53,612 nt of DNA from an uncultured Verrucomicrobiota bacterium (lineage in GTDB: Bacteria > Verrucomicrobiota > Verrucomicrobiia > Limisphaerales > MWDV01), in the NCBI GenBank assembly GCA_964371005.1, contig CAYJNU010000001.1:27104-80715 (forward strand), read 5' to 3'. Each line of letters starts with the position of its first letter. The stretch's first letter is position 1. Of this stretch, positions 2,766 through 51,582 are shown one piece after another. Made by a program: the position numbers and the translations under genes. Below the pieces are notes generated by a model. The model had not been told where the DNA came from, did no database searches, and saw only the letters and a list, made by a program, of their open reading frames with translations.

Positions 2766-2769
2766 GATC

Positions 2770-10381: not shown

Positions 10382-10412
10382 CCAGACGAGACGACGGCCA
10401 ACCCTTTGAGAC

Positions 10413-21233: not shown

Positions 21234-21557
21234 ATGCCATCGGAAGACGGTCATTTCGCACCACTACAGCTTGAACAAGCCATCCGGCGCCGTGCGCAGG
21301 TGATCAATGCCTTCAAAGAGGAGTTGATCCGGCGGCTAAACCTCCCTTTTGTCCCGGAAGACCTCCACGAAGATGTGTCACTGCTCGGTTCGGGGCTGGG
21401 GCTCGACTCGCTCGATGCGCTTGAGATCGTGCTTTGCATCGAACACTGCTTCCGCATCAAGATTCCCGACGAAAACATCGCCGTGCTGCGTTCAATCAAC
21501 ACCGTGGTGGATTTCATCATCGCCCAACAGGATGCCCAGGGAGGGAAGCCGGCATGA
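21234..21557 (+). CDS. Acyl carrier protein (phosphopantetheine attachment site)
   Basis: 'LLGSGLGLDSLDALEIVLCIEHCF' contains the DSL serine motif. It is 107 aa. Confidence 0.85.
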   Translation: MPSEDGHFAPLQLEQAIRRRAQVINAFKEELIRRLNLPFVPEDLHEDVSLLGSGLGLDSLDALEIVLCIEHCFRIKIPDENIAVLRSINTVVDFIIAQQDAQGGKPA

Positions 21558-22663
21558 GGATCTCGTTGCTTAAAGAGAAGCTGGCCGCCGCCGGGGCGTC
21601 ATTCCGCGAACGAGCCGGAACGGAAGTCGTTTCGCACTTCGCCGAACCGCCCACCGAGTATCGCGCGGTGCGCGATGCCGTGGCCCTGACGGATTTCTCC
21701 TTCGTCCGGTCTTTCCGCCTGCCCGAAGACAAGGGGCTGGATTTCCTGGACGCCCTCCTGGCCGGCAACGTGCCCAAGATCCGCTTTGGCCGGGCGCTGC
21801 ACACGATGATGCTTAACAGTGAGGGGCTGCTGGCAGGCGATTGTCTCGTAGCCAATAACGACCAGGAATTCGTCTTTCTGTGTGAGAGCATCGTGCCTGA
21901 CGTCGAAATAGATGCGCTGATGCAAGCGGCGGGCGTCGCGGACGCGGGACACGAAGAACTCACATCCAGCCATGTTTTGCTCAGCTTGGACGGCTACAGG
22001 GCATGGGAAGTCGTGAAGCGGCAATTTGGGCCGGATGTGCTCGGGCTGCCGTATCTGTCCATCGAGAACTACACTTTCGATGGTTCGCCGGTGCGGCTGT
22101 TCCGCGCGGGCAAGACCTCCGAGTTCGGCTACCTGATCCTGGCGCCCCAGAGCGTGGCCGTCGCATTGTTCGACACACTCAAGACCGAGGTGGAGCAATG
22201 TGAAGGACGCTTGTGTGGCGTGGACATTCACGACGAGTTACGGTTGGAAGGGCGTTTTTTCAACATTCACCAAGAAGGCCTGCGCGTGCGCGATCCGCTG
22301 CCGCTCGGCCTTCAGTGGATGGTGGATTTGGAGAAGGACAATTTCACGGGTGTTGCAGCGCTGAAGCAACGCCGGGCGGCGGGTCTCAAACAGAAGATCG
22401 TCGGCGTCGCGGCGGAGACTGATTGCCAATCGCTCAAGGCCGGGGCCCAAGTTTTCCATGAGGGCAAACCGGTGGCGGAAGTAGTAGCACACTGCTTCTC
22501 ACATGTCCTCAACCGCCCGCTCGGACTGGCGCTGTTCCCGATCGAGTTGGCCTATTCTGGACTCTCATTTCAACTCGGTGCGGCCGGCGGGCCGGCGATC
22601 ACGACCATCTCGATGCCGCCGATCATGCCCAAGAGTTTGGGTGTCAAACTCGACGAGATGTAA
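21554..22663 (+). CDS. GcvT/aminomethyltransferase-family folate-binding protein
   Basis: ATGA overlap with the ACP stop. 'EYRAVRDAVALTDFSFVRSFRLPEDKGLDFLDALLAGNVPKIRFGRALHTMMLNSEGLLAGDCLV' follows the T-protein N-terminal pattern, and the size (369 aa) fits. The internal ATG of ORF 21434..22663 was chosen. Confidence 0.7.
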   Translation: MRISLLKEKLAAAGASFRERAGTEVVSHFAEPPTEYRAVRDAVALTDFSFVRSFRLPEDKGLDFLDALLAGNVPKIRFGRALHTMMLNSEGLLAGDCLVANNDQEFVFLCESIVPDVEIDALMQAAGVADAGHEELTSSHVLLSLDGYRAWEVVKRQFGPDVLGLPYLSIENYTFDGSPVRLFRAGKTSEFGYLILAPQSVAVALFDTLKTEVEQCEGRLCGVDIHDELRLEGRFFNIHQEGLRVRDPLPLGLQWMVDLEKDNFTGVAALKQRRAAGLKQKIVGVAAETDCQSLKAGAQVFHEGKPVAEVVAHCFSHVLNRPLGLALFPIELAYSGLSFQLGAAGGPAITTISMPPIMPKSLGVKLDEM

Positions 22664-22669
22664 GCTGCC

Positions 22670-23116
22670 GTGGTGACCGCCCGCCATGCCGCTCCAGGCC
22701 GGCTGATCAAACGCCGAATCCCGATCACGCCGGCGTTTCATGAGACCGACATGATGGGCGTGGTGCACAACTCGGTCTATTTCCTGTGGTTCGAACAAGG
22801 ACGGCTCCAAATCATGCTGGAGGTATTGCCAATTGAGGAAGCCCTTGCGCTCGGCGTCGCCATGCCGGTGGTTGAAAACGTCTGTCATTATCGCAAGCCG
22901 GTGAAGTTCGGTGCGCCGCTCCTCCTCTACACCACGCATCACATCCAGCCCGCCTACGAAGGTCGGCTCGTCTTCCACCACTACCTGATTCACGAGAAGC
23001 ACCGCACGGCGATGGCCTGGGGGCAAACCGCCACCACGCTGGTGGAGGCAAACACCAACCGTCTGGTGAAAGACTGGCCCACCGACCTCTGGCAGCGCTA
23101 TCAGGCGCTGGCTTGA
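22670..23116 (+). CDS. Hotdog-fold acyl-CoA/acyl-ACP thioesterase (YbgC/4HBT family)
   Basis: 'FHETDMMGVVHNSVYFLWFEQGRLQIM' is the catalytic Asp block of 4HBT-type thioesterases. GTG start. Confidence 0.8.
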   Translation: MVTARHAAPGRLIKRRIPITPAFHETDMMGVVHNSVYFLWFEQGRLQIMLEVLPIEEALALGVAMPVVENVCHYRKPVKFGAPLLLYTTHHIQPAYEGRLVFHHYLIHEKHRTAMAWGQTATTLVEANTNRLVKDWPTDLWQRYQALA

Positions 23117-23150
23117 TACCGCGGCCTGAAACCGGGACAATCCCGCATTC

Positions 23151-23894
23151 ATGGAACGCGAATTTGAGAATCAGGTCGTGCTCGTCACCGGCGGCTCGCG
23201 AGGCATAGGCCGGGCCGTCGTCGAGCGGTTTGCCGCCCGCGGCGCAAAAGTCTTCTTCACCTACCACCAACAGGAGGAGCAGGCTCGCGAGGTGGCGGCG
23301 GCTTGTGGCGCCGTGGCCATGCAGTGTTCGCAGACAGACCCCGCCGCCATCGAAGCCGCCGTGCGACGCGTATCGACCGAGGGCGGGAAGATTGACGTGC
23401 TCGTCAACAACGCCGGCGTCACGGCGGACATGTTCCTGATGCTCATGCCGGCAGACGATTGGAACAAGGTGCTGGACACGAACCTGAACGGAGCGTTCCG
23501 CTGGTGCAAGAACGTCATCCGCCCAATGCTCCTGGCGCGCAAAGGCTCGATCATCAACGTCGCCTCCATCTCCGGCCTCGTCGGCGTCATGGGCCAGACC
23601 AACTACGCCGCGTCCAAAGGCGCGTTGCTGGCTTTCTCCCGTTCGCTGGCTGCTGAGGTCGGCCCCAAGGGCATCCGCGTGAACGCCGTCGTGCCCGGTT
23701 TCATTGAGACCGACATGACCGCGCGCGTGCCCCGTCAGATCAAGCAGCGCAATCTGGAGCACATTCTTCTGAAACGCTTCGGACAACCCGCAGAGGTTGC
23801 GTCCGTCGTCACGTTTCTCGCCTCGGAAGCGGCCTCTTACATCATGGGGCAAATGATCGTGGTGGACGGTGGCTTGACCGCTACCGCCGCGTGA
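23151..23894 (+). CDS. fabG: 3-oxoacyl-ACP reductase (SDR)
   Basis: '[11 protein letters not shown]' (TGxxxGxG), 'NNAGV' and 'YAASKGA' (YxxxK). It is 247 aa. Confidence 0.9.
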
Positions 23895-23904
23895 CCGTGC
23901 TCCG

Positions 23905-24891
23905 ATGAATGTCTTTCTATTCCCGGGCCAGGGTTCGCAAGAAATCGGGATGGCCGCCGACTTGTTCAAAGCGGATCCCTGCTTCCGTGACCTCGTTGCC
24001 TTCGCCGCCGGGAAGTCGGGAGCCGATTTGGAACGCATTTGCCTGCGCGGCCCCGAGCGGGAATTGATCCGGACCCGGAATCTGCAACCCTTGCTGGTCT
24101 GCGTTTCGCTGGGCTACCTGCGCCACTTGACCGAACGCGGAGTCCGGTCGGATTGTGTCCTCGGCCATTCGCTGGGTGAAGTGACGGCGCTGGCGGCAGC
24201 GGGCGTCATTTCCGCGGAAGCCGCCGTTGCGCTGGCAGCGGAACGCGGTCGCTTGATGGACGGAGCAGCGGCCCAAGTAGCGGGGGGCATGGTCGCCGTG
24301 ACCACACCGAATCGGGAACGGCTGGTGCAGTGGCTCGCCACAATGCCGCCCGAGCGTCTGGTTCTGGCGAATGACAATGCACCCACGCAACTCGTGCTCT
24401 CCGGCACCGTGGCTGCCTTGGAAGAAGTGGGGCGGTTCGTGGCGGCGGAGCGATTGGGGGCCTGCCGCAAATTGCCCGTGGCGGGTCCGTGGCACAGCCC
24501 GTTGATGGCAGAGGCGCAGCGCGCGTTCACCGGATGGCTGCAAGCGATTCCCTTTCGCGCGCCCGCCACCCCCGTCGTGTTCAACATCACGGGCAACCAG
24601 GAAGACGACCCCGCACGCATCCGCTCGCTTGCCGCCCGCAATCTCGCCGAGCCCGTTCGCTGGCGGACCAGCATGGAAACCGTGCGAACGATGCGACCAA
24701 CCACCCTGTTTGAGATCGGACCCGGCCGTGTGCTCGCGGGGTTGGCGCGAGCCAATGGCTTCGACGATGCCACCCGGATCGTTCACGTCAACAACCTGCG
24801 CGGCGTCGAGTTGGCGGTGGCGGCGAAGAATCCAGTGGACGTTGGCGGTCCAAATCGTTCATCGTCTTCGTCGTCAACCCCACCGGTTTAG
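23905..24891 (+). CDS. fabD: Malonyl-CoA:ACP transacylase
   Basis: 'FLFPGQGSQ' and 'GHSLGEVTALAAAG' form the acyltransferase GHSxG motif. Confidence 0.9.
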   Translation: MNVFLFPGQGSQEIGMAADLFKADPCFRDLVAFAAGKSGADLERICLRGPERELIRTRNLQPLLVCVSLGYLRHLTERGVRSDCVLGHSLGEVTALAAAGVISAEAAVALAAERGRLMDGAAAQVAGGMVAVTTPNRERLVQWLATMPPERLVLANDNAPTQLVLSGTVAALEEVGRFVAAERLGACRKLPVAGPWHSPLMAEAQRAFTGWLQAIPFRAPATPVVFNITGNQEDDPARIRSLAARNLAEPVRWRTSMETVRTMRPTTLFEIGPGRVLAGLARANGFDDATRIVHVNNLRGVELAVAAKNPVDVGGPNRSSSSSSTPPV

Positions 24892-24898
24892 ACGGGCG

Positions 24899-26737
24899 AT
24901 GCGGGTTGCCATCACAAACGACACAACGACACAGATGGATTCAGCCGCCGTTTCGGAAGTCAACCGGGCCAACATCCCGCCAGCAGAACAACGCCTGAGC
25001 GCTCGCTCGTCGCCCGTCGCCATGCAATTGCCAGGACGCAACGGCCACCGGCTTACCGTCCGGCTGGCCACAGAGCGGGACCGCGAGACCATCTACCGGG
25101 TACGCCATGAGGTTTATGCCCGGGAGCTGGGCCAGCATCACCCCAACGACGCGGGCCGCCTGACGGATGCACTCGACACGTTCAACGCCTACATTGTGAT
25201 TTCCGAAGGGGATACGGTGGCGGGCTTCGTTTCCATCACGCCGCCGGGCAGCCCGAGTTTCTCCATCGACAAGTATCTCCGCCGCGATCAACTCCCGTTC
25301 CCGTTCGACGACCGCCTCTTCGAAGTACGCCTGCTCACCGTCCCGGAGACGAAGCGCCGCCGACTGCTCGCGCTGGCGCTGATGTATGCCTCGTTCCGCT
25401 GGGTCGAAGCCCACGGCGGCACCAGGATTGTGGCCATCGGCCGCCGCGAGGTTTTCAGCATGTACGAGCGCGTGGGGCTCAAGCCCATTGGCCTCACCGT
25501 GCAATCCGGTGCTGTCACCTACGACGTGATGCAAACCACGATGCCGGAGGTTCACGCCGCGTTGCCCGGCATTCGTGGCATGCTTGACCGCATCCAGGCC
25601 GAAATGGCTTGGGACATCGGCGTTGCTTACGACACCCCGGCAGCCTGTTATCACGGCGGCGCCTTCTTCGACGCCGTAGGCGACGAATTCGGCTCGCTGG
25701 AGAAACTCGACACCATCATCAACGCCGACGTGCTGGATGCCTGGTTTCCGCCGTCGCCACGTGCGGTAGCAGCGCTTCAGGAGAATCTCCCACAGCTCCT
25801 GCGCACCTCGCCCCCGACCGGATGCGAAGGGCTGGTGCGCGCCATCGCGCGCACGCGCGGGGTGACACCCGATTCTATCCTGCCGGGCGCGGGTTCGTCC
25901 GACCTCATCTTTCTCGCCTTGCGCTACTGGCTGACACCGCAATCCCGCGTGCTGATTCTGGACCCCACGTATGGCGAGTACGCGCACGTCCTGGAAAAGG
26001 TCATCCGCTGTCGTGTCGAACGTTTGCGACTGCACCGCAACGAACATTTTCGGCTGGATCCGCGCCGCTTGGAGGCCCAGTTCGCGCACGACTACGATCT
26101 GGTTGTGCTGGTAAACCCAAACAGCCCCGCCGGCCAGCACGTTCCGCGTGCCGACCTGGAGCGGGTGTTGCGCGCCGCCCCGTCCCACACGCGGGTCTGG
26201 GTGGACGAAACCTACGTGGACTACGCCGGGCCGGGTGAAACGTTGGAGGCATTCGCCGCGGCCTCGGAGAACGTGATCGTGTGCAAGTCCATGTCGAAAA
26301 CCTACGCGTTGAGCGGCGCGCGGGTGGCGTATTTGTGCGCGGGGCCGCACCAACTGGAATCCCTGCGCCCGCTGACGCCGCCATGGGCGGTCAGCCTGCC
26401 CGCGCAGGTGGCGGCGGTGAAGGCCCTGGAGGACGTGGACTACTACGCGGCGCGCCATGCCGAAACGCACGGGTTGCGTGAGGATCTCGCCAAAGGGTTA
26501 CAGGCGCTCGGCTGGGACGTGCTGCCCAGCATGGCCAATTATCTCCTCTGCCATTTGCCGGCGGAGGGGCCGGACGCGGCGACGGTTGTCGCGCGCGGTC
26601 GGGAACGCGGTTTGTTCCTGCGGGACGCGGCGACGATGGGCTCGCAACTGGGCGACCGCGCGATCCGCGTCGCCGTGAAAAATGCCGCGACGAACGAGCG
26701 GATGCTTCAAATTCTGGGCGGTGTCTTGCGCGCCTGA
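24899..26737 (+). CDS. Fusion protein: GNAT-like N-acyltransferase domain plus class I/II PLP aminotransferase (HisC/CobD-like) domain
   Basis: N-terminal half: 'RETIYRVRHEVYARELGQ...YIVISEGDTVAGFVSITPP...RRRLLALALMYASFRWVEAHGGTRIVAIGRREVFSMYERVGLKP' (acyl-amino-acid-synthase/GNAT-like). C-terminal half: 'ADVLDAWFPPSP...ILPGAGSSDLI...VNPNSPAG...CKSMSKTYALSGARVAYL' (PLP lysine block). The ATG at 24899 inside ORF 24629..26737 was chosen. Confidence 0.7.
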   Translation: MRVAITNDTTTQMDSAAVSEVNRANIPPAEQRLSARSSPVAMQLPGRNGHRLTVRLATERDRETIYRVRHEVYARELGQHHPNDAGRLTDALDTFNAYIVISEGDTVAGFVSITPPGSPSFSIDKYLRRDQLPFPFDDRLFEVRLLTVPETKRRRLLALALMYASFRWVEAHGGTRIVAIGRREVFSMYERVGLKPIGLTVQSGAVTYDVMQTTMPEVHAALPGIRGMLDRIQAEMAWDIGVAYDTPAACYHGGAFFDAVGDEFGSLEKLDTIINADVLDAWFPPSPRAVAALQENLPQLLRTSPPTGCEGLVRAIARTRGVTPDSILPGAGSSDLIFLALRYWLTPQSRVLILDPTYGEYAHVLEKVIRCRVERLRLHRNEHFRLDPRRLEAQFAHDYDLVVLVNPNSPAGQHVPRADLERVLRAAPSHTRVWVDETYVDYAGPGETLEAFAAASENVIVCKSMSKTYALSGARVAYLCAGPHQLESLRPLTPPWAVSLPAQVAAVKALEDVDYYAARHAETHGLREDLAKGLQALGWDVLPSMANYLLCHLPAEGPDAATVVARGRERGLFLRDAATMGSQLGDRAIRVAVKNAATNERMLQILGGVLRA

Positions 26738-26744
26738 ATGCACT

Positions 26745-27833
26745 TCAGGTGGCGGGCGGTGGAAAAAACCGTTCCAGTCGCGCAAACAAGGATCTGTCTC
26801 CCTCCAACTCAATCTGACGTTGGGTCAACGCCTGACGCGCATCGGTCTGCCGGGTGAAGAGGCCCGCCCACACCGCTGCGGTACAACGAACGCGCAGATC
26901 CGGGTCCGTTGCGGCCCCTTCCACCAACTCGCATCGTCCGCGGTCAATTCGGACCTGATACACGAGGTCCGGCTCGCGGAACTCGAACTGCAGGACCGCC
27001 CGCACCCGGGCCGCCGCCTTCGCGTCGAAAAAGCGCACCATCTCGCGCATGAGGATGCGCACGTCCGCGGAGACCTGCTTCTGCACTTCGGCAGGGTCCA
27101 AGCCCGTTTCGCGCAACGCCTCGGCGCGTCTCCAGTAGATGTTTGAGTAGGTGCGGAAATGCTCGGGTGACGCCGCCAGCGGCAGTGCCACCGCCTCGGT
27201 GGTTTCCGCCGTCAATCTCCCGGTCGTGCCGGCCTCGCGCCCCGCCTGAACAAACGCCGTCTCGATCCGCTTCAGCGTCTTCGGTTTCGAGAGCGGATAA
27301 TCCAGCAGATACGATTCCGGCCGTGTCAGTTGGCCGCCGAGTTCCAGATCCAAGCTGTCGGCAATGAGTTGGAAGGTGGCATTCAGTGGCTCGTACGGCT
27401 CCGGGCCGGGCAATGCGCCGGTTACGATGGTGATCAACTTCTTGTGGCGCCAGCGGCGCGGGAAACGCACGCTGTTGCGCGTCAGGCCGCGCGCGGAACG
27501 GACGACGCCGGGCGCAAACAACGGGAACGTGCGCTCAAACCAAGTCTTCAGCAACGCGCTCATCGAGTAGAAGTAGAGTGGCGTCACGCACACGATCACG
27601 TCGGCGTCGAGCACCTGTTCGAGCTGCGCGCCCATGTCATCGCCGTGGACGCATTGACCGGGCGTGACCAGCCAGCAGTGAAAACAACCGAGACAGGGCT
27701 GAACGGAAAGCGCCGAGAGGTCCGTGCCGGTCACCTTTGCCCCGACCTCGTGCAGGCCCTGGAGAAAGAGATCCGCGACGCGCTGCGTGTAGCCATGCTT
27801 GCGCGGATTGCCTCGCACCAGCAGCACCTTCAT
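26745..27833 (-). CDS. Fusion protein: iron-sulfur flavoprotein-like FMN reductase domain plus SCP2 sterol/lipid-carrier domain
   Basis: 'MKVLLVRGNPRKHGYT' is a flavodoxin-like NADPH-FMN-reductase start. The compact Cys motif 'CLGCFHCWLVTPGQC' (CX2CX2CX7C) is present. The C-terminus 'LQFEFREPDLVYQVRIDRGRCELVEGAATDPDLRVRCTAAVWAGLFTRQTDARQALTQRQIELEGDRSLFARL' is SCP2-like. Confidence 0.7.
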   Translation of the reverse strand: MKVLLVRGNPRKHGYTQRVADLFLQGLHEVGAKVTGTDLSALSVQPCLGCFHCWLVTPGQCVHGDDMGAQLEQVLDADVIVCVTPLYFYSMSALLKTWFERTFPLFAPGVVRSARGLTRNSVRFPRRWRHKKLITIVTGALPGPEPYEPLNATFQLIADSLDLELGGQLTRPESYLLDYPLSKPKTLKRIETAFVQAGREAGTTGRLTAETTEAVALPLAASPEHFRTYSNIYWRRAEALRETGLDPAEVQKQVSADVRILMREMVRFFDAKAAARVRAVLQFEFREPDLVYQVRIDRGRCELVEGAATDPDLRVRCTAAVWAGLFTRQTDARQALTQRQIELEGDRSLFARLERFFPPPAT

Positions 27834-35773: not shown

Positions 35774-35800
35774 AAACGGCGCGGCAAGGGTAACGGTGGC

Positions 35801-40936: not shown

Positions 40937-41077
40937 GATTTACTTCAAGCAACCCGGTGAGGTCTGAGCGCGTCGCGCTGCTACGCACTTGCCCAACGCT
41001 CGGTTCGTGAACGATGTGGAGGCTAGCCTTCGTGGTATGGGGTATGCAAACGAATGTTGTGCCTTCAGCCCACGATT

Positions 41078-42385: not shown

Positions 42386-42386
42386 C

Positions 42387-43139
42387 GTGAGTTGGCAAGC
42401 AATTCAACCTCGCGCCCCCATTGCCGCGGCCCGCCGTTTCGTGTTTGAACGGGATACGTTCGCCTTTGCCAACGAGCTGATCTGGGAGTATCGCTTCGAC
42501 CCGATCACCGGCAAGGCCACGACGCTGTGGAACAAACCGCCGCCCAACTACGCTCATCGCTGCTTCGTGCTGACCCGCTCCGCCCGGCAATTCCTTTACC
42601 ACGCGCGTTTCGATGCCGCACTACCGGTGACGGATGGAGAAACCTATTGCCGGCTCATACGCACCGTGGTGTCGCGGGATCCCCGGCGTCCCGGCACGCC
42701 CGAGAACCGCGCGGTCGTTCCCGGCTACGAGGGATTGCGCGCGTTCAGCCTCGCGCACGAGCCGCTCCTGAAGACCCACTGTGGCGGCGCGTGGCAATCA
42801 TATTTCCTGCGCAGCCATTGGCGGATCGTGTTGCCCATGACGCGCGCGCACCAGGCAAAGATGGCGCAGCAGCTCGTGGATTCCTTTGCGCCGCGGCTCG
42901 CGCCCATCGCCCACCTCGTCCGCTTCCCACAACTCACCATCAACCACGGCATCGTGCTGACGGACCATGCGGAAACGCCGGCGGGCATTCGTTTCTCGGC
43001 GTACGATCCAAACGTCCCAGCCCAGCCAGCCGAGCTTTTCTTCGACCGCGAACAGCGCACGTTTCATTTTCCCCGGAACCATTACTGGCCGGGCGGACGC
43101 GTGGATGTGATCGAGGCGTATCGCGGCGGACTCTACTGA
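42387..43139 (+). CDS. Conserved-looking hypothetical protein (no family recognised)
   Basis: The ORF is open from 42177 but overlaps the divergent ligase gene there. In-frame GTGs at 42387 and 42441 are candidate starts. The composition is globular ('FVFERDTFAFANELIWEYRFDPITGKATTLWNKPPPNYAHRCFVLTRSARQFLYHARFD'). Confidence 0.45.
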   Translation: MSWQAIQPRAPIAAARRFVFERDTFAFANELIWEYRFDPITGKATTLWNKPPPNYAHRCFVLTRSARQFLYHARFDAALPVTDGETYCRLIRTVVSRDPRRPGTPENRAVVPGYEGLRAFSLAHEPLLKTHCGGAWQSYFLRSHWRIVLPMTRAHQAKMAQQLVDSFAPRLAPIAHLVRFPQLTINHGIVLTDHAETPAGIRFSAYDPNVPAQPAELFFDREQRTFHFPRNHYWPGGRVDVIEAYRGGLY

Positions 43140-43564
43140 ACTCGCGTTTTGTTGCGCCCCGCCGGCCGGAACGCCAGGCCGAAGAATACCAATCCACAAA
43201 CGTTGATACCCGCAATGTACCCCAGCTTGTAGGCGCGGCCCGAATTGGTCGGAGCATAGATCGGGACATCTTTTCCCATGAGGAGACTCGGCAGCGCCAC
43301 CGGCATCAACGCGCCATGAGTCGTGCCCAACCAGAATCCCGCCGTGTTCTCGGTGCGATACAGGCGCGGGGCTGCCCACGCGTAAACCCAGCCCAAGAGC
43401 AAGCCCACAACGACCAGAGTTGCCGCCTTCTGAAGCAGCCGCTGGACGCATCCACGTCGCCTGGCTTGGGCGGCGCCAGGCTCGGCGCCCGCGGCTTTGG
43501 GCGAACGTTCGCTTGCTGGTTGGTTCACGCGCCGAAGTCTAGCGAGCCACGGTTGCGATGCCAT
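43133..43564 (-). CDS. Small integral membrane protein (about 3 TM helices), unknown function
   Basis: The C-terminal 100 aa of ORF 43133..43891 contain hydrophobic spans 'ATLVVVGLLLGWVYAWAA', 'FWLGTTHGALMPVALPSLLM' and 'LGYIAGINVCGLVFFGLAF'. ATG 43564 was chosen; the start is uncertain. Confidence 0.4.
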   Translation of the reverse strand: MASQPWLARLRRVNQPASERSPKAAGAEPGAAQARRRGCVQRLLQKAATLVVVGLLLGWVYAWAAPRLYRTENTAGFWLGTTHGALMPVALPSLLMGKDVPIYAPTNSGRAYKLGYIAGINVCGLVFFGLAFRPAGRNKTRVQ

Positions 43565-43615
43565 TCCCGAATTGCGGTTGCTTGACGAGGTCGGCTTGGT
43601 AGGCTGTGGTTCAAC

Positions 43616-44644
43616 ATGCTTCACACGCCGACTGCGAGCGAACTTACCGCCCGGGACGGAGTCCAGGAGCGCCTCCACGAACGGGCGCGGGCCGCAGTCC
43701 ACTCCCGGTTTGGCCGGCAGGTGTTTGTCCGGGCCGTGGTCGAGGTTTCCAACTTCTGTCGGGAAAACTGCCATTACTGCGGCATGCGCCGCGACAACCG
43801 CGCCCTGCACCGGACACGCATCGCGAGGGATGAACTGTTGGAGCTGCTGGTGAATCATCGCCCTGCCGCCGTCACCGACATCATGCTTCAAGCCGGCGAA
43901 GACCCAGTGGCGGCGCGCGAAATCGTGCTTCCACTGGTGCAGGCCTTGCGCCGGGAAACGCCCTGCGGCATCAGCGCCTGCCTGGGCACGCTGGACAGGG
44001 CGTTGTGTTCAGATTTGAATGCCGCCGGGGCATCGGTTTGCGTGCTCAAGTTCGAAACCTCCGATCCCCGAATCTACGAACAATGCGAAGCCCCGGGCAC
44101 GCTGCACCAACGATTGGAGCATCTCCACTGGCTCGCGGCGAACGGTTGGTGGGTCAGTTCGGGATTCATCGTCGGGCTGCCCCGGCAAACGGTGGAATCG
44201 TGGCTCGCGGATTGTCAGCTCGCGTCGCGCCTGCCGGTGACGGGGTGCAGCGCCAGCCCGTTTGTGCCGGGCGAAGCCACTCCATTGGCGAATGCCCTGC
44301 CCGGGGACGTGGAGACCACCTTGAACTGCATGGCCGTGATGCGCCTGCTGCGGCCGGGCTGGATCATCCCTGCGGTCAGCGCGCTCAATATCGGCCAGCC
44401 GGGCAGCGGCTATCGACGCGGCCTGCGCGCGGGCGCGAACCTCGTCACCATCAACCTCACGCCGCGTGACCTGCAACGCGAATACCTCATCTACAAACGC
44501 GACCGCTTCATCATGAACGAGGAGCGCGTCATGACCGCGCTGGAGACCGAGGGATTGACACCGTCGCCCCAGAGCTTGACTGGCTTTTTCGGCAACCGCG
44601 CGGCGCAGGCCACCGGATCAACCATCGCGCAGGCGGCCACCTGA
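43616..44644 (+). CDS. Radical SAM protein, BioB/HydE/ThiH-like
   Basis: 'VEVSNFCRENCHYCGMRRDN' (CX3CX2C at C48/C52/C55). It is 342 aa with TIM-barrel-like periodicity as in BioB-type enzymes. Confidence 0.8.
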   Translation: MLHTPTASELTARDGVQERLHERARAAVHSRFGRQVFVRAVVEVSNFCRENCHYCGMRRDNRALHRTRIARDELLELLVNHRPAAVTDIMLQAGEDPVAAREIVLPLVQALRRETPCGISACLGTLDRALCSDLNAAGASVCVLKFETSDPRIYEQCEAPGTLHQRLEHLHWLAANGWWVSSGFIVGLPRQTVESWLADCQLASRLPVTGCSASPFVPGEATPLANALPGDVETTLNCMAVMRLLRPGWIIPAVSALNIGQPGSGYRRGLRAGANLVTINLTPRDLQREYLIYKRDRFIMNEERVMTALETEGLTPSPQSLTGFFGNRAAQATGSTIAQAAT

Positions 44645-44650
44645 GTTCAC

Positions 44651-46060
44651 ATGGCCAGCCGCGTCCTTCTCGTCAGCCCGAACCGATGTGTCACACCGGA
44701 CCCCGTGTTTCCGCTGGGGCTCGCCCATGTGAACGCGGCGTTGCGGACAGCGGGCCACGAAACGCGTTGGCTGGATGCGCTGGTCAACGGCGAGACGCTT
44801 GAAAGCGCATTGGCTGAATTCCAACCACACTTCGTCGGCGTATCGCTGCGCAACATTGACGACGTTTTGATCCTGAAAAAGGAGACGTATTTCGATGAAC
44901 TCGCGCGCATCACGGAAACGGTGCGGCGTGTGCGTCCCTGCCCGGTGATTCTCGGCGGGAGCGGTTTCTCGGTGATGCCGGAGCGGTTGCTGACTGCCAG
45001 CGGGGCCGACTTCGGAATTCATGGTGAAGGCGAATCTGGCTTGGTTGCGCTGCTGGCGGCGTTGGAACAAGGCACTGATCCGACGGGATTGAAGGGCCTG
45101 GTGTTTCGCCGTAATGGGAGCGTGATGGCGAACCCACCTCAGCCCGCGCCGGTCACGCAGCCGCTGGCGGAGGCGGATCGCCCCGCGGCGCTTGTCGAAC
45201 ATTACGTGCGTACCAGCGGCATGTTGAACCTCCAGACCCAGCGGGGTTGCGCCCACACCTGTTGCTATTGCACCTACCCGCTCATTGAGGGTCGCCGTCA
45301 CCGCCGTCGCCCGCCGGAGTTGATCGCTGAGGAAATGGTCCAACTCAAAGAGCGCGGGGTGAACTACGTGTTCATCGTGGATTCGATATTCAACTCGTCG
45401 CCGGCGCACGTTGCGGAAACATGCGATGCCCTCCTGCGACGGGGAGTGGCCATGCGCTGGGGATGCTTCCTGCGCCCCGCCGGCCTGACCGCCGAACTGA
45501 TGAAGCTCATGGCCCGTGCGGGGCTGGCGCATGCGGAGTTCGGCTCGGATAGTCTTTGCGATCCTGTGCTGGAAGCCTACGGGAAACGCTTCTGCTTCGA
45601 CGAGGTGGCCCAGAGTTCGGAATTCGCACGTGAAGCCGGGGTGGATGCGTGTCACTTCCTGATCTGCGGCGGACCGGGGGAAACCGAAGCGACGTTGGAG
45701 ACCTCGTTTCAGAATTCGCTGCGACTGCCGAACCCGATCATCATGGCGGTCGTCGGCATGCGGATTTATCCGGGCACCGAACTCCAAAAACGGGCGATGG
45801 CTGAAGAGGTCATCACGCCAGATACAGACCTGCTGCCACCCGTGTATTATCTCGCGCCGGGTTTGACGGAGGAAGGTGTATTCGCACGCCTGCGCGAGTT
45901 TGCCAAACGCAGCGCGGGCTGGATTCCCGGCGATCCCGGCCCGTCGTACGCGAGCCTGGTGCAGCGCCTCCGGCGCCGCGGCGTGGCCGGGCCGTTGTGG
46001 AGCTACTTCGCCATGCTGCAACGCATCATGCCACCGGCGCCGCAGTCCACCGCTGCATGA
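44651..46060 (+). CDS. B12-binding-domain radical SAM protein (class B), lipid-biosynthesis-associated type
   Basis: N-terminal Rossmann-like B12 domain 'RVLLVSPNRCVTPDPVFPLGLAHVNAALRTAGHE...FVGVSLRNIDD...ILGGSGFS'. Radical SAM motif 'QRGCAHTCCYC'. Confidence 0.85.
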   Translation: MASRVLLVSPNRCVTPDPVFPLGLAHVNAALRTAGHETRWLDALVNGETLESALAEFQPHFVGVSLRNIDDVLILKKETYFDELARITETVRRVRPCPVILGGSGFSVMPERLLTASGADFGIHGEGESGLVALLAALEQGTDPTGLKGLVFRRNGSVMANPPQPAPVTQPLAEADRPAALVEHYVRTSGMLNLQTQRGCAHTCCYCTYPLIEGRRHRRRPPELIAEEMVQLKERGVNYVFIVDSIFNSSPAHVAETCDALLRRGVAMRWGCFLRPAGLTAELMKLMARAGLAHAEFGSDSLCDPVLEAYGKRFCFDEVAQSSEFAREAGVDACHFLICGGPGETEATLETSFQNSLRLPNPIIMAVVGMRIYPGTELQKRAMAEEVITPDTDLLPPVYYLAPGLTEEGVFARLREFAKRSAGWIPGDPGPSYASLVQRLRRRGVAGPLWSYFAMLQRIMPPAPQSTAA

Positions 46061-47442
46061 AACGCCTCCTCCTTATCTCGCCCGTCGCGTCGCGCAGCCT
46101 CATGGGCGGGGACTTCTTCTTCCGCATGCCGTGTCTGGCGTTACTGAAAGTCGCCGCGCTCACACCGCCGGGTTGGGAGGTGCGGGTGGTGGATGAGAAG
46201 GTCGAAACGCTCGACCTCGAACAAAGCTCGGATGTGGTTGGCATCACGGCGGTGACTCCCACCGCGCCGCGTGCTTACGTCATCGCTGATCATTTCCGGA
46301 AGCGCGGCTGCCGTGTGGTTATGGGGGGCATGCATGCGTCGGTTTTGCCAGAGGAAGCGCTCAAGCACTGTGATGCAGTGGTCATTGGCGAGGCGGAACA
46401 TCTCTGGCCGCGCGCGCTCAAGGATTTCGAGCAAGGCACGTTGCAGCCAGTCTATCGCCACGAAGATGGGTTGCCTGCGCTGGATGGTTTGCCCCGACCC
46501 AACTGGGAGCTGTTTCGAGAAAAGCGTTACCTGCCCGTGCATTTCGTCGAAACCACGCGCGGCTGTCCGCTCGACTGCGAATTCTGTGCAGTGACCAGTT
46601 CCTTTGGTGGTCGCTATCGCAACCGCCCGCTCGACGAAGTGTTGGCCGAGTTGCACGGTCTCAAGCCGTTCGACGGCCTGCTGACACTGAAGAACTGCGT
46701 GTTCTTCGTGGACGACAACATTTTCAGCAACCGCGCCTACGCCCGGGAATTGTTCACGCGCATCGCCGACCTGAAGCTAATCTGGTTCGGTCAGGCCTCC
46801 GTGAACATTGCGAATGATGACGAAATCCTGCGACTCGCCCGGCGTAGCGGCTGCACCGGCCTGTTCATGGGGCTGGAGTCGCTTTCCGAGCAGACCCTCC
46901 GCGCCGCGGGCAAACGGGTGAACCATCCGGAACACTATCTCGACGTGATTCGCAAGTTGCACGACCATGGCATTGGCGTGGACGCCTCGTTCGTGTTTGG
47001 CTTCGACACGGACGATTTGGGCGTCTTTGACCGCACGCTGGAGTTTGCGATCCGGGCAAAGGTGGAGGTTGCCTACTTCTCGATCCTTACGCCGTATCCC
47101 GGCACGCGCGTCCACAATCGGCTGCGCGAGGAAGGCCGGCTGTTCAGCACCGACTGGTCGCTCTACGACAGCAGCCGCGTGGTTTATCGCCCCAAGACCA
47201 TGACGCCGGACCAATTGCTCGATGGCTATCATCGCACGCTGAAGAGCTTCTACTCGGTGTCCTCGGTCTGCCGGCGATTATGGGGAGCAAGCTCGCGGAA
47301 GAACTTCTTTTATCCGATGAACTTCGGTTTCCGCCAGAGTGTGAAGCGGCTTTCGCAGACCTACCACGCCGGCGGATTGCGCGTCGAACCGCAAGCGGAA
47401 CTCGTGAATCATGTTGTTCCCTCCACCGAAACCTCCTGCTGA
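46057..47442 (+). CDS. B12-binding-domain radical SAM protein (class B, with a DUF4070-like C-terminus)
   Basis: ATGA overlap with the upstream gene. 'LLLISPV...PCLALLKVAALTPPGWEVRVVDE...VVGITAVTPTAPRAY...VVMGGMHAS' is the B12 domain. 'TRGCPLDCEFC' is the radical SAM motif. Confidence 0.85.
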   Translation: MKRLLLISPVASRSLMGGDFFFRMPCLALLKVAALTPPGWEVRVVDEKVETLDLEQSSDVVGITAVTPTAPRAYVIADHFRKRGCRVVMGGMHASVLPEEALKHCDAVVIGEAEHLWPRALKDFEQGTLQPVYRHEDGLPALDGLPRPNWELFREKRYLPVHFVETTRGCPLDCEFCAVTSSFGGRYRNRPLDEVLAELHGLKPFDGLLTLKNCVFFVDDNIFSNRAYARELFTRIADLKLIWFGQASVNIANDDEILRLARRSGCTGLFMGLESLSEQTLRAAGKRVNHPEHYLDVIRKLHDHGIGVDASFVFGFDTDDLGVFDRTLEFAIRAKVEVAYFSILTPYPGTRVHNRLREEGRLFSTDWSLYDSSRVVYRPKTMTPDQLLDGYHRTLKSFYSVSSVCRRLWGASSRKNFFYPMNFGFRQSVKRLSQTYHAGGLRVEPQAELVNHVVPSTETSC

Positions 47443-48652
47443 ACCGCCGCGGGTCGTTGTCACCGGCGCGGGTATCGTCACCGCGCTCGGGATGGGCTGG
47501 CAGGTCAACGCGGAAGGCTTCCGCGTTGGGCGAACCGCCTTCCGCCCGGTCACGCTGTTCGACGTTTCGCGGCAACGCGTGAAACTGGCGGCGGAAGTGG
47601 ATCTACCCCAAACCCTGCCGGCGACGTTACTGCCTGAGAAGGAAACTCGCCGCCTCGACCGCGCCGGACGATTGCTGCTTCTAGCCGCTCGCGAGGCTTG
47701 GCAACAAGCGGGCTGGACACCGGACGAAACGCTGCCTGTGGTGATGGGGACCACCAGTGGCGGCATGAACTCAGGCGAGCAGTACTACCGCAAAGCAATT
47801 GCATCGACATCGGCGAAGCGTGGTCAGCCAACGCTTGCGTTGCATTATCAGGCACAAACCCAAGCCCGGTTGGTGGCTGAAGCCTTGGGCGCGGGCGGAC
47901 CGATTCAACTCGTGGCCAACGCCTGTGCTTCGGGCGCGAATGCCATCGGCTGCGCCTGGGAGTTACTCCGGCGCGGACGTGCAACGCGTGTGCTCACCGG
48001 CGGCTACGATGCACTGAGCTTGCTTACGTTCTCCGGCTTCGACGCGTTGCAGGCGCTCTCGACCACATCCTGCCGACCATTCGACGCAAAGCGAGACGGA
48101 CTGGCATTGGGCGAAGGAGCGGGTGTGCTCACATTGGAGACGCTGGACTCGGCTCGTCAGCGCAACGCGGTCATTCTGGGTGAAATCACCGGCTATGGCG
48201 CGGGCATTGACCTGCACCACCTCACCCAACCGCATCCCCAAGGCGACGCCGCGCTGGAAACCATGCGCCTCGCTTGCGCCAGCGCCGGGGTTTCTCCGGC
48301 CGAGGTGGATTACGTCAACGCGCACGGCACCGGGACGCCGTTGAACGACACCGCGGAAGCCATCGCCCTCGCACGCTGGGCCGGCGAATGCGCCTCCACG
48401 CTGCCGGTCAGCTCCACCAAGGCCAGCATCGGCCATCTCCTCGGGGCAGCGGGCGCGGTCGAAGCCGTCGTCAGCTTAATGGCGCTCCGCGGACAATGGC
48501 TGCCACCCGAGCGCGTGGTGGAAACCCCAGATCCAGCGTGCCGCTTCCCGCTAGTGCTCGAACCAATGGAACGGCGCGTGAACGTGGTGCTGTCGAACTC
48601 GTTTGGCTTTGGCGGGGCGAACGCCAGCCTGATTTTGCGGAGGTTCGCATGA
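47411..48652 (+). CDS. Beta-ketoacyl-ACP synthase (FabF/KS-alpha type)
   Basis: 'RVVVTGAGIVTALG', 'ANACASGANAIG' (active Cys), 'NAHGTGTPLNDTAE' and 'GHLLGAAG' (His/His), and 'SNSFGFGGANASL'. Confidence 0.9.
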   Translation: MLFPPPKPPAEPPRVVVTGAGIVTALGMGWQVNAEGFRVGRTAFRPVTLFDVSRQRVKLAAEVDLPQTLPATLLPEKETRRLDRAGRLLLLAAREAWQQAGWTPDETLPVVMGTTSGGMNSGEQYYRKAIASTSAKRGQPTLALHYQAQTQARLVAEALGAGGPIQLVANACASGANAIGCAWELLRRGRATRVLTGGYDALSLLTFSGFDALQALSTTSCRPFDAKRDGLALGEGAGVLTLETLDSARQRNAVILGEITGYGAGIDLHHLTQPHPQGDAALETMRLACASAGVSPAEVDYVNAHGTGTPLNDTAEAIALARWAGECASTLPVSSTKASIGHLLGAAGAVEAVVSLMALRGQWLPPERVVETPDPACRFPLVLEPMERRVNVVLSNSFGFGGANASLILRRFA

Positions 48653-49674
48653 CGCGCATCGGCCTCAGCGGCTGGGGCGCGGTTTCGCCGGCGGGCTGGG
48701 GCGTGCCCGCAATGCGCGCCGCGTTGGAGCACGGCGCGCCCATCCCCGCTCAGCCAATGACGCGCCCCGACGGTTCGGTCCTGTGGGTTCGGAACGTGCC
48801 ACCTCCGTCGCCAGCGCGCCCAGCTTTCCTCGCGCATCCTCGACTGCGGCGCACGAGCGTGATCACTCATGCCTGTGCGGCCGCAACGCTGGAGGCTTTG
48901 GAGCCAATCAGGGCAACGGGCGGCAACCGCGAGAACCGGCTGGGGTTGATCGTCTGTCTGCTGGCAGGTTGCACACAATACACCGAACGCTTCTACAAAG
49001 AAGTGCTGCAAGATCCGGCCACCGCCGGCCCACTCATCTTTCCGGAAACCGTGTTCAACGCTCCCGCCAGCCACCTTGCGGTGCTGTTGGGCGGCGTGAC
49101 CGCTTGTTACACGTTGCTGGGGGATCCGGCGTCGTTTCTCACCGGAGTGGCGCTCGCCGCAGATTGGCTGCTTGAAGGAAGGGTGGACTCCTGCGTCGTG
49201 CTCGGCGCCGAGGAGCCACACTGGTTGCTGGCCGACGCGTTGCGGCACTTCGATCCACAGGCTGTGCTCGGCGGTGGCGCCGGCGCGCTCTGCCTTACGC
49301 GGCAAGAGGAGGCGCAAGCTCCCGTCGAGTTGGATTTGATCACGGACGCTTTTCTCTACTCTCACACCCGAACCCGCTCCGCCGCTGCTGCACAGATGCG
49401 GTACGCCTTGCCGCCGGCTGCTCCCGGCGAGCTGCTTTGCGACGGTTTGCAGGGGGCACCGCATTCTGACCGGGCCGAGACTGCGGCTTGGCGTACCTGG
49501 CCCGGCTCGCGGATCAGCCCCAAGATGGTGCTCGGCGAAGGGCTGATGGCCGCCGCCGCCTGGCAGTGCGTTATTGCTTGCGACACTCTGGCCATGGGCC
49601 GCCACCCTGCAGGACAAGTCAGCCTGGTGGGCGTCAATCAGCAGGCGGTAGGTGCGCGATTTCAGGGCGCCTAA
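48649..49674 (+). CDS. KS-like chain length factor (no active-site Cys or His pair)
   Basis: ATGA overlap with the KS stop. It has KS-fold-like blocks ('RIGLSGWGAVSPAG', 'VVLGAEE'), but 'TLLGDPASFLTG' replaces the Cys block. The internal ATG 48649 of ORF 48274..49674 was chosen. Confidence 0.7.
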   Translation: MTRIGLSGWGAVSPAGWGVPAMRAALEHGAPIPAQPMTRPDGSVLWVRNVPPPSPARPAFLAHPRLRRTSVITHACAAATLEALEPIRATGGNRENRLGLIVCLLAGCTQYTERFYKEVLQDPATAGPLIFPETVFNAPASHLAVLLGGVTACYTLLGDPASFLTGVALAADWLLEGRVDSCVVLGAEEPHWLLADALRHFDPQAVLGGGAGALCLTRQEEAQAPVELDLITDAFLYSHTRTRSAAAAQMRYALPPAAPGELLCDGLQGAPHSDRAETAAWRTWPGSRISPKMVLGEGLMAAAAWQCVIACDTLAMGRHPAGQVSLVGVNQQAVGARFQGA

Positions 49675-51518: not shown

Positions 51519-51546
51519 TTTTTTCTTCGTGTTTTGAGGAAAAGGC

Positions 51547-51575: not shown

Positions 51576-51582
51576 AGACTCC

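Follow-up and report, generated by a model that had tools for sequence, protein, structure and literature searches.

Aryl polyene (APE) clusters and the so-called ladderane-type clusters, in which radical S-adenosylmethionine (SAM) enzymes are encoded beside ketosynthases (KSs), are among the described systems closest to the locus treated here: a lipid gene cluster of about 28 kb on a 53,612-nt stretch of DNA from an uncultured Verrucomicrobiota bacterium (contig CAYJNU010000001.1 of assembly GCA_964371005.1, positions 27,104 to 80,715), which over its full length we refer to as the window. In APE lipids, an aryl polyene, a conjugated C26:5 fatty acid, and a saturated acyl chain are joined on GalNAc-phosphoglycerol (Grammbitter 2020, bioRxiv 10.1101/2020.12.19.423268). 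Their pathway builds the aryl polyene and the conjugated fatty acid on two separate acyl carrier proteins (ACPs), and its core consists of KSs (apeO/R), ACPs (apeE/F), a chain length factor (CLF; apeC), dehydratases (DHs; apeI/P), a ketoreductase (KR; apeQ), and a transporter (apeM), with ApeD/ApeJ attaching the chains, ApeM being responsible for export, and ApeL (LolA-like) and ApeN (DUF3261) for transfer (10.1101/2020.12.19.423268). Loci combining radical SAM genes with several FabF paralogues were reported in 2009 in Kuenenia, Desulfotalea, Geobacter, and Pelobacter, and the larger Kuenenia locus (kuste3335-3352) also contains acyl-CoA-ligase-like, polysaccharide-deacetylase-like, lipoprotein, and lipid-transport membrane protein genes (Rattray 2009, PMC2649909). 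Anammox cluster I (KustE3603-3608) encodes a dedicated ACP, FabZ, a phytoene-dehydrogenase-like enzyme, and a cobalamin (B12)-dependent radical SAM enzyme, together with an active and a catalytically dead FabF that form a KS/CLF-like heterodimer, amxFabF2/amxFabFmut (Dietl 2023, PMC10139942; Granatino 2026 bioRxiv); its role is unproven even in anammox bacteria (PMC10139942).

Judged by its gene families, the locus is a cluster that joins an APE-style pathway (module A) to a radical SAM/KS module of the ladderane type (module B). It is a variant, not previously characterised, of a cluster kind that is widely detected but uncharacterised, and common in Verrucomicrobiota: earlier surveys found "ladderane" biosynthetic gene cluster (BGC) calls to be enriched in Verrucomicrobia, and present and expressed in Verrucomicrobiota and Fibrobacterota, with function unknown, and a 2026 review gives the chemistry of the radical SAM enzymes of ladderane clusters as unknown. 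The "ladderane" and "arylpolyene" labels rank with the most frequent BGC calls made in Verrucomicrobia of soil and peat, none of them with a known product, and the window holds both kinds in one tightly coupled locus with a single KR, DH, and malonyl transferase. We lean towards a hybrid pathway, in which a tyrosine-derived aryl polyene and a second, radical SAM-tailored acyl chain would be joined on a membrane lipid anchor. The analysis also flags three conserved partners not noted before: a GcvT-like enzyme coupled to a carrier protein, an Isf::SCP2 fusion, and a DUF8321/8322 protein.

Gene modules of the locus

Open reading frames (ORFs) were re-called and the candidate proteins were scanned against Pfam and NCBIfam, which reproduced, each at its coordinates, all domain calls of an original prediction made from the DNA sequence alone. 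That prediction had counted 26 genes in three operons. Its list holds 25 genes; the three gene units are present, namely unit 1 on the plus strand (21234-26737), unit 2 on the minus strand (42349/42385 down to 26745), and unit 3 on the plus strand (43616-49674), but two further genes lie in the gap between units 2 and 3, which brings the locus to five transcription units and 27 genes. The sole KR, DH, and malonyl transferase (FabG, FabZ, and FabD) are split between units 1 and 2, alongside three KS systems, and with only one of each available the units would have to rely on each other or on the housekeeping fatty acid synthase. No enoyl reductase of known type was returned for the cluster proteins by the Pfam and NCBIfam scans.

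The tight packing claimed for unit 2 was borne out when recomputed: between 39371 and 27830, all but 2 of the 12 junctions are overlaps of 4 or 8 nt, the exceptions being a 27-nt gap between the genes of the second ACP (ACP2) and a 690-aa KS (KS690) and a 43-nt overlap between those of KS690 and a thioesterase (TE2). Elsewhere, 4-nt overlaps join the gene of the first ACP (ACP1) to that of the GcvT-like protein in unit 1 and, in unit 3, two radical SAM genes (rSAM2/rSAM3) as well as a KS gene and that of its degenerate partner (KS3/CLF3), while rSAM3 and KS3 overlap by 32 nt. Units 1 and 2 converge at 26737-26745 with stop codons 7 nt apart, too close for terminators to fit between them, and their transcripts probably overlap as antisense RNAs; in a relative (L001), the genes of Isf::SCP2 and FabD converge with an overlap of 25 nt.

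The radical SAM, KS, and CLF genes of unit 3 had been regarded as a non-canonical oddity; they belong instead with the TIGR04072 "ladderane-type" family, as rSAM2 (44651-46060, +), a B12-binding radical SAM enzyme, passes the equivalog with 402.9 bits (curated cut-off 360). TIGR04072 is rSAM_ladder_B12, "lipid biosynthesis B12-binding/radical SAM protein", the name that public homologues of rSAM2 bear. Next to it stand rSAM3 (46057-47442, +), by the same scans a second B12-binding radical SAM enzyme with DUF4070, and rSAM1 (43616-44644, +), a HydE/PylB-type enzyme with a Radical_SAM domain that matches HydE (145 bits) and PylB (83 bits) in the PDB and falls below the HydE equivalog (187 bits, cut-off 254.6); neither HydF nor HydG was found among the window ORFs scanned. 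The unit closes with KS3 (47411-48652, +), a FabF-like KS with an intact Cys-His-His triad, and CLF3 (48649-49674, +), a KS-like partner devoid of the Cys and both His, whose sole solved relative is 9s5h_C (E 1.4e-5). The 9s5h structure is probably the anammox FabF heterodimer that includes the mutated-FabF subunit, to judge from its two FabF-like chains of 412/413 aa in two 2026 entries.

In one relative (L167:1489-5244, minus strand; ENA ERZ21831265, ctg82046l), a single ORF of 1251 aa combines B12-binding, Radical_SAM, KS, and second KS-like (CLF) domains; it carries CxxxCxxC at residue 183, and its radical SAM part is 34% identical to rSAM3 and its KS part 33% identical to KS3. This fusion and the coupled rSAM3/KS3/CLF3 genes together suggest that the B12-dependent radical SAM enzyme works physically with the KS/CLF on an enzyme- or ACP-bound chain, and the tightly coupled locus and the fusion argue that such cobalamin enzymes would act in association with the KS/CLF pair, during chain elongation. 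Action during elongation is also the main question posed by the anammox ladderane cluster, for which genetics is not available.

An alignment of all KS-like domains reveals three KS/CLF pairs and not two, because the 690-aa protein, called simply a KS in the original prediction, also has a CLF-like tail. The active type is represented by KS3 and by the N-terminal half of both the 690-aa and the 842-aa protein, and each partner lacks the triad. KS690 (35801-37873, -) has its Cys-His-His triad intact, and its truncated C-terminal tail, a weak match to AmcG (33 bits), corresponds in relatives to a KS gene followed by a separate gene of 175-231 aa. The 842-aa KS-CLF fusion, KS842 (32991-35519, -), has the triad in its N-terminal KS and not in its C-terminal KS-like half, and its PDB matches are 9s5h_B (236.6 bits), FabF (235 bits), and ApeO (6qsp, 183.9 bits). 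Between the two lies ACP2 (35516-35773, -; 85 aa), with a DSI motif and an NF006617 score of 77.5 bits (cut-off 70).

Starter supply would fall to an aromatic amino acid ammonia-lyase dependent on 4-methylideneimidazole-5-one (MIO), encoded at 39368-40936 on the minus strand (Lyase_aromatic, 531.7 bits). It contains an Ala-Ser-Gly triad at residues 141-143 and a tyrosine-type switch, His81-Leu82, which aligns with the His89-Leu90 switch of RsTAL from Rhodobacter sphaeroides (2o6y); this position reads Phe-Leu in phenylalanine lyases and Ser-His in histidine lyases. Among solved structures, tyrosine aminomutases and RsTAL come closest (~310 bits), with histidine lyase scoring lower (~283 bits), and in NCBIfam the protein stays under the HutH and FlxA equivalog cut-offs. 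On the strength of the triad, the switch, and these relatives, conversion of tyrosine to p-coumarate is the best-supported reading of the MIO enzyme, for which sequence does not separate a lyase from an aminomutase, and the p-coumaroyl-type aryl starter put forward in the original prediction is accordingly plausible. The enzyme next to it is a short AMP-forming ligase (41078-42349, -; start at 42349 with ATG or at 42385 with TTG) with AMP-binding and AMP-binding_C domains and the core motifs TSASTGTPR, FYGATE, and GKISR.

Unit 1 opens with ACP1 (21234-21557, +; 107 aa; PP-binding, E 1.3e-7), whose LGLDSLD motif contains the DSL phosphopantetheine site. The GcvT-like folate-binding protein of the aminomethyltransferase family (21554-22663, +; GCV_T 119.9 bits, and GCV_T_C) has its true start at 21554, overlapping the ACP1 stop, and in relatives its gene invariably lies directly after ACP1. 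It scores below every GcvT equivalog cut-off (126.8 bits against 300; 99 against 236), it comes closest, among solved proteins, to the Thermotoga T-protein (84 bits), and it retains the Asp aligned with Asp96 as well as the RxGxTxExG and D..RLE motifs; there is no H-protein in the window, the GcvT-like gene being coupled to an ACP gene instead. The unit continues with TE1, a 4HBT/YbgC-type hotdog thioesterase (22670-23116, +; 4HBT_2, E 2.5e-11); the FabG-type KR, the only one in the region (23151-23894, +; adh_short_C2 234 bits; NF009466 FabG 248 bits, cut-off 222); the FabD-type malonyl-CoA:ACP transacylase, the only acyltransferase of its type in the region (23905-24891, +; Acyl_transf_1 135.7 bits; TIGR00128 218 bits, below the cut-off of 261); and a 612-aa fusion of a FeeM/OlsB-like GNAT domain to a HisC/CobD-like pyridoxal phosphate (PLP) enzyme (24899-26737, +; Aminotran_1_2 131 bits). 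The GNAT domain falls slightly below the Pfam cut-off for FeeM (25.9 bits against 27), and the PLP part carries an SMSK Schiff-base lysine motif; the gene is optional, being found in L003, L006, L012, and L026 and absent in L001, L005, and L020-L024.

At the distal end of unit 2, the Isf::SCP2 protein (26745-27833, -; FMN_red, Flavodoxin_2, and SCP2) fuses an Isf-type iron-sulfur flavoprotein domain to a lipid-binding SCP2 domain. All four Cys of its motif C47-x2-C50-x2-C53-x7-C61 are invariant in 29 homologues, and this compact motif we take, by comparison with the Methanosarcina Isf, to bind a 4Fe-4S cluster. The closest solved structure of the Isf domain is the flavone ene-reductase FLR (7d38, E 6e-7), and the fusion could serve as reductant for the radical SAM and cobalamin centres or as a substitute enoyl reductase. 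It was also considered as the missing DarA, an idea that was dropped when NCBIfam gave just generic NAD(P)H oxidoreductase and KefF/KefG matches. Upstream of it, the only DH of the region is of the FabZ type (27830-28297, -; NF000582 123.7 bits, cut-off 113) and matches an ordinary FabZ (104 bits) and 7qv0/8ayc (93-94 bits), presumably the structures of the anammox amxFabZ, about equally.

The remaining genes of unit 2, all on the minus strand, encode candidate acylation and transport functions. A PlsC/OlsA-like acyltransferase (28290-29108; Acyltransferase 79 bits) has N-terminal membrane segments and the HX4D motif NHRGFMD, and an LpxL/lysophospholipid acyltransferase-family protein (38334-39371; Lip_A_acyltrans 77 bits) has the HX4E motif HLGGWE. 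Between them are encoded a C45 autoproteolytic acyltransferase/hydrolase of the N-terminal nucleophile, isopenicillin-N acyltransferase-like kind (29105-30793; NF040521 191.6 bits, cut-off 85; AAT), with an N-terminal membrane helix, C-terminal TPR repeats (TPR_16), and a Gly-Cys processing site in RRGCTAF; a lipoprotein of no assigned family (30790-31515), with the lipobox LVACGC, in which Gly22-Cys23 is invariant in 9 homologues; a LolA-like periplasmic lipid or lipoprotein carrier (31512-32216; LolA 66 bits), whose best NCBIfam model is LolA2_flexi; a membrane-anchored NodB-type (CE4) de-N-acetylase (32209-32994; Polysacc_deac_1 123 bits), with two N-terminal hydrophobic segments and the metal motifs TFDDGP and HSHRH; and the 4HBT thioesterase TE2 (37831-38337; 4HBT_2 60.9 bits), in an ApeK-like position. 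The lipoprotein is possibly ApeN/LolB-like, given a weak match to the ApeN domain DUF3261 (E 0.024), which just 2 of 9 family members match (E ~0.02).

The 1.2-kb gap at 42386-43615 holds the two conserved genes that the original prediction had missed and that gene calls on related contigs, together with tblastn to the window, brought to light. The first (42387-43139, +) encodes a DUF8321/DUF8322 protein, 81% identical to its homologue in L083, with its start set by a 100%-identical database protein of 250 aa. Cys59, His187, and Asp207 are invariant, and the confident AlphaFold2 model (pLDDT 81) gives only weak fold matches in the PDB (best E 4e-3, TM 0.28), with papain-like peptidases and phytochelatin synthase on top; these hint at a papain-like fold, and the assignment goes no further than a probable Cys-His (thiol) enzyme. 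The second (43133-43528, -; start at 43528 with GTG or at 43564 with ATG) encodes a small membrane protein of ~131 aa with three hydrophobic helices, 58-75% identical to its same-position homologues in L083-L085.

Recurrence in relatives and genomic surroundings

Conservation was followed from two anchors. The first, Isf::SCP2, taken with one genome per species, yielded 27 loci in Verrucomicrobiota, Victivallales, Kiritimatiellia, and Chitinivibrionales with identities of at least 44%; homologues at 33% identity or less (Desulfobacterota, Chloroflexota, archaea), which do not lie in such clusters, were excluded from the counts. The trio PlsC-FabZ-Isf::SCP2 is present in 17 of 26 informative loci, and the unit-1 genes (ACP1-GcvT-TE-FabG-FabD) occur with Isf::SCP2 in 13 of the 27; in 9 of these 13, unit 1 converges on Isf as it does in the window, and in L012, L028, and L061 it lies upstream on the same strand. 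The order KS-ACP-KS/CLF-NodB-LolA-lipoprotein-C45-PlsC-FabZ-Isf recurs in six Verrucomicrobiota loci (L001, L004, L006, L009, L026, and L166), the unit-2 order begins at KS-CLF in L003 and L005, and the MIO lyase heads a unit-2-like operon in L013 and L019. A Victivallales locus (L028) places rSAM3-like, KS, CLF, KS-CLF, ACP1, GcvT, TE, FabG, PlsC, FabZ, and Isf::SCP2 genes in one co-directional run.

The second anchor was DUF8321 in metagenomes, on peat and bog contigs. The AMP-ligase gene adjoins it in 40 of 48 informative loci, and in the 23 loci with at least 6 kb downstream it is followed by the small membrane gene (20), rSAM1 (14), rSAM2 (13), rSAM3 (9), KS3 (16), and CLF3 (15); many of these relatives also contain an MMPL::LpxL fusion, LolA, an ApeI-like DH, a glycosyltransferase, a KR, and an ACP. 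The recurrence of the same gene sets in dozens of independent genomes and contigs means that the clustering is not due to chance: the units are real, recurrent modules, and the extra genes are co-conserved with the core and are not accidental neighbours. Module B genes are conserved over Verrucomicrobiota, Lentisphaerota, Kiritimatiellia, and Fibrobacterota. The co-conservation expected of the units held in part, in that units 1 and 2, and likewise units 2 and 3, are often adjacent in relatives but do not always stand together, being separated by ~400 kb in one case.

The original prediction had reported that the window contains no MMPL exporter, and this stands: there is none among the annotated window ORFs, and tblastn with the MMPL::LpxL fusion of a relative matches the LpxL part only. 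In relatives, MMPL exporters fused to an LpxL-type acyltransferase (~1100-1160 aa) and, in one of them, an MMPL fused to a SAM methyltransferase were observed, the coordinates being L084:430-3912, L085:16625-19945, L167:5935-9282, and L167:19735-20735. The clade of the window has lost or relocated its MMPL genes.

The closest public homologues of the cluster all come from Verrucomicrobiota metagenome-assembled genomes and from peat, bog, and wetland metagenomes; the best species-level genome match of Isf::SCP2 is just 65% identical, contigs at 85-100% identity occur in raw assemblies only, and the G+C content is level throughout the window. Directly upstream of unit 1 lie hopanoid genes (17418-20927), comprising a YdjC/HpnK-like gene (17418-18128, -), a GT21 HpnI-like glycosyltransferase gene (18308-19603, +; 116 bits, below the cut-off of 310), and the hopanoid side-chain gene HpnJ (19500-20927, -; 711 bits, cut-off 577.6). 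In a Verrucomicrobiota relative (L017), an HpnJ homologue with 73% identity is the sole other window gene detected at the Isf::SCP2 locus; unit 1 may be an insertion between the hopanoid genes and Isf::SCP2, or two lipid systems may be linked. Further out, 461-16214 holds flagellar genes (FlgI, FlgK, FlgL-like, and flagellin), after which come a cytidylyltransferase, a capsule-synthesis-like protein, and a 1933-aa giant with methyltransferase, GT4, GT1, and several GT2 domains and TPR repeats; this region is probably a flagellin or surface glycosylation island.

On the other side, directly after CLF3, an alpha/beta hydrolase of the PHB-depolymerase/esterase family (49975-50904, -) was left out of the cluster because tblastn found no homologue of it beside the cluster in any fetched locus. 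It is followed by tRNA-Pro(CGG) (51441-51518), the only match of an Rfam scan of the whole window, which returned no cobalamin, SAM, or tetrahydrofolate riboswitch, and right after that by a tyrosine recombinase/integrase (51583-53166). The stretch 51441-53166 resembles the left border of an integrated element beginning just to the right of the lipid cluster, which lies outside it.

A candidate pathway and its alternatives

From the gene content, motifs, family memberships, and co-conservation described above, we infer how the hybrid pathway would run, including its substrates, its sequence of reactions, what the radical SAM and GcvT-like enzymes do, and its product. In module A, the MIO lyase would make p-coumarate from tyrosine, which the AMP-ligase would activate and load onto ACP2; the fused KS/CLF proteins of 690 and 842 aa would then extend it with malonyl units, with FabD, FabG, and FabZ as shared enzymes, to a conjugated aryl polyene, a polyene being expected of a chain that passes through FabG and FabZ alone, in the absence of a canonical enoyl reductase. 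In module B, KS3/CLF3 would build a second chain on ACP1, which, while enzyme-bound, the two B12-dependent radical SAM enzymes and the HydE-like one would tailor by C-methylation or C-C bond formation; Isf::SCP2 would supply electrons or stand in as ene-reductase, and the GcvT-like protein coupled to ACP1 would perform a folate-dependent one-carbon step. For assembly, the hotdog thioesterases and the LpxL-, PlsC-, C45-, and optional GNAT::PLP acyltransferases might place the chains on a glycerolipid, aminosugar, or aminolipid anchor, its amine exposed by NodB, and the LolA-like protein and the lipoprotein might carry the product to the outer membrane. The APE lipid, with its two chains, two ACPs, and several acyltransferases, provides a precedent for such a two-chain hybrid.

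Module A resembles an APE or flexirubin pathway in the way it would work, and we file it under neither family. The features of the APE core found in the window are at least two KSs with the catalytic triad and a CLF partner, two ACPs with DS(L/I), and a FabG-type short-chain dehydrogenase/reductase (SDR) as KR. The "flexirubin/APE-type core" of the original prediction thus survives as a parts list that maps onto the APE scheme, but the flexirubin equivalogs fail and, by bit score, ApeO is no nearer to the KS than FabF is; together with the missing MMPL exporter and the missing ApeI/ApeP-type pair, for which the Pfam/NCBIfam scans gave an ApeI-like score of 16.7 bits (cut-off 28.5) and no ApeP-like match, this makes the likeness a resemblance and not a demonstrated membership.

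Several observations weigh against the hybrid pathway and must be set beside it. The window contains neither an MMPL exporter nor a glycosyltransferase, both of which APE lipids need; KS842 scores lower to ApeO (184 bits) than to FabF and 9s5h_B (235-237 bits), scores against PDB entries serving as a proxy for grouping with APE KSs; and the flexirubin equivalogs all fail (FlxA 382.5 bits against 700, FlxB 236.5 against 340, and LolA2_flexi 91.6 against 125). The MIO lyase adjoins the AMP-ligase only in the window and in the 89-90% relative L083, and in 0 of 48 metagenome loci; of 19 informative loci, only 13 proved to have unit-1 genes along with Isf::SCP2; many relatives keep rSAM1-KS3-CLF3 without rSAM2 and rSAM3; and on one 899.5-kb contig, where unit 1 is not beside Isf, a unit-2-like operon and a unit-3-like cluster lie ~400 kb apart. 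Nor is there an established mechanism for any enzyme of TIGR04072, or for the involvement of a GcvT-like protein in making lipids.

The alternative that survives best is that two or three independent lipid pathways lie side by side, an APE-like pigment being made by unit 2 and a radical SAM-modified lipid by units 1 and 3 with PlsC-FabZ-Isf::SCP2. The ~400-kb separation just described speaks for it, as do the module B runs of Victivallales and Chitinivibrionales, which have no visible MIO, NodB, LolA, or C45 genes within 10 kb, the apparent self-sufficiency of unit-3-like clusters in relatives, which hold their own KR, ACP, DH, LolA, and MMPL::LpxL, and the shuffling of gene order among lineages. 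In the window, however, module A lacks its own KR, DH, and malonyl transferase, and 4- and 8-nt overlaps tie the genes of FabZ, PlsC, and Isf::SCP2, which other phyla have in module B, translationally to those of module A within a single operon. A shared pathway would also be compatible with loci lying apart in one genome, and APE lipids themselves join two polyketide-like chains. We regard independence of the pathways as rather unlikely.

An ordinary flexirubin or APE cluster with unrelated neighbours, making a standard pigment, is improbable. The set of ammonia-lyase, ligase, KS/CLF, ACP, KR/DH, LolA, and acyltransferase resembles both families, and FlxA, FlxB, and LolA2_flexi are among the better NCBIfam matches, but the three flexirubin equivalogs lie far under their cut-offs, and neither an ApeI/ApeP pair nor an MMPL was found. 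No DarA/DarB- or KS-III-type family was returned for the cluster proteins by the general Pfam/NCBIfam scans, which included no Dar-specific profile for the smaller ORFs, and to that extent the reported absence of dialkylresorcinol genes is confirmed. The supposedly extra genes are, furthermore, co-conserved with the core across phyla. The expectation of the original prediction that the product is no standard flexirubin or aryl polyene is in keeping with these results.

More improbable still is a pathway in which the HydE-like radical SAM enzyme, the GcvT-like protein, and the ammonia-lyase perform aminomethyl or thio chemistry on the phosphopantetheine arm of ACP1, giving an S- or N-containing lipid head or starter. 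HydE, T-protein, and an ammonia-lyase cooperate in synthesis of the dithiomethylamine ligand of [FeFe]-hydrogenase from aminomethyl-lipoyl-H-protein (PMC11736057), and the window has a HydE-like enzyme (145 bits), a T-protein-like enzyme with the catalytic Asp, translationally coupled to a carrier protein, and an ammonia-lyase within 23 kb. Yet HydF, HydG, H-protein, and hydrogenase are absent from the window, so that the co-occurrence is probably a coincidence; rSAM1 lies under the HydE cut-off (187 against 254.6), the lyase is an MIO aromatic enzyme with a tyrosine-type switch and not an aspartate or serine lyase, and ACP1-GcvT occurs in many loci where rSAM1 or MIO is not seen. A true ladderane (concatenated cyclobutane) pathway outside anammox bacteria is hardly credible, for while rSAM2 belongs to TIGR04072, KS3/CLF3 mirrors amxFabF2/amxFabFmut, and both lineages are in the PVC superphylum, ladderanes are known from anammox Planctomycetota only, the phytoene-dehydrogenase-like gene of the anammox cluster (PMC10139942) is missing from the window, Desulfotalea has a similar cluster and no ladderanes (PMC2649909), and the part played by the cluster is not established in anammox bacteria themselves.

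For the hybrid pathway, we tentatively raise the further possibility that module B is a non-anammox sister of the "ladderane" machinery, in which radical C-C bonding or methylation on a bound chain would be combined with a folate-dependent one-carbon step, and the product joined to the aryl polyene as a new class of outer-membrane lipid. If module B were such a sister, it would open a comparative, and perhaps easier, way into the radical SAM/KS-CLF chemistry of anammox bacteria; the practical value hinges on obtaining the lipid, and the product is so far a prediction.

Comparison with described systems

No characterised cluster with the same gene set was found in the literature; the Pelobacter genome paper was discarded as a precedent, its mentions of an ammonia-lyase being unrelated to the cluster. 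With the flexirubin clusters of Bacteroidota, the window shares a starter supply of the tyrosine ammonia-lyase type, a ligase, type II KS machinery, an SDR reductase, and a LolA-like protein, and it differs from them in equivalogs that stay below their cut-offs, in the dialkylresorcinol genes, of which none were found, and in phylum. The ishigamide (Iga11/Iga12) and cispentacin (AmcF/AmcG) systems likewise pair a FabF-like KS with a degenerate partner, and KS842 matches Iga11 (6kxd) with 213 bits while the AmcF/AmcG models match KS690 and its tail, all under the equivalog cut-offs; tailoring genes and products are unrelated to those of the window. The GNAT domain matches FeeM and Acetyltransf_5 weakly, and PlsC matches OlsA weakly, all below threshold. 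GNAT::PLP and PlsC together would fit an N-acylation followed by O-acylation of an amine head group, as in ornithine lipids, but unlike OlsB and FeeM the GNAT domain is fused to a HisC/CobD-like PLP enzyme, and it is absent from many relatives.

The ape clusters of Xenorhabdus doucetiae and E. coli CFT073 have in common with the window an aryl-acid adenylating enzyme, two ACPs, a KS with an inactive CLF and a further KS, a KR, a FabZ-fold DH, a hotdog thioesterase, lysophospholipid-type acyltransferases, a LolA-like carrier, and a lipoprotein, and neither contains an enoyl reductase. Whereas the ape starter is 4-hydroxybenzoate, the window has a tyrosine-type lyase within the cluster; it has one FabZ instead of the ApeI/ApeP pair, and its KS/CLF pairs are fused. 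The MMPL exporter, the glycosyl/acyltransferase ApeJ, and the SAM methyltransferase ApeB of the ape clusters have no counterpart in the window, which goes beyond them with its radical SAM, GcvT-like, Isf::SCP2, C45, NodB, GNAT::PLP, and DUF8321 genes.

In relation to the anammox clusters, the window differs by its host, which is not an anammox bacterium, and by the absence of a SAM methyltransferase and of a phytoene-dehydrogenase-like gene, no amine-oxidase/phytoene-desaturase domain having been returned for the cluster proteins by Pfam or NCBIfam. What it shares with ladderane-type clusters is a TIGR04072 B12-dependent radical SAM enzyme beside active and catalytically dead FabF homologues, together with a dedicated ACP and FabZ, and to this common set it adds the MIO lyase and the GcvT-like, Isf::SCP2, C45, and HydE-like genes.

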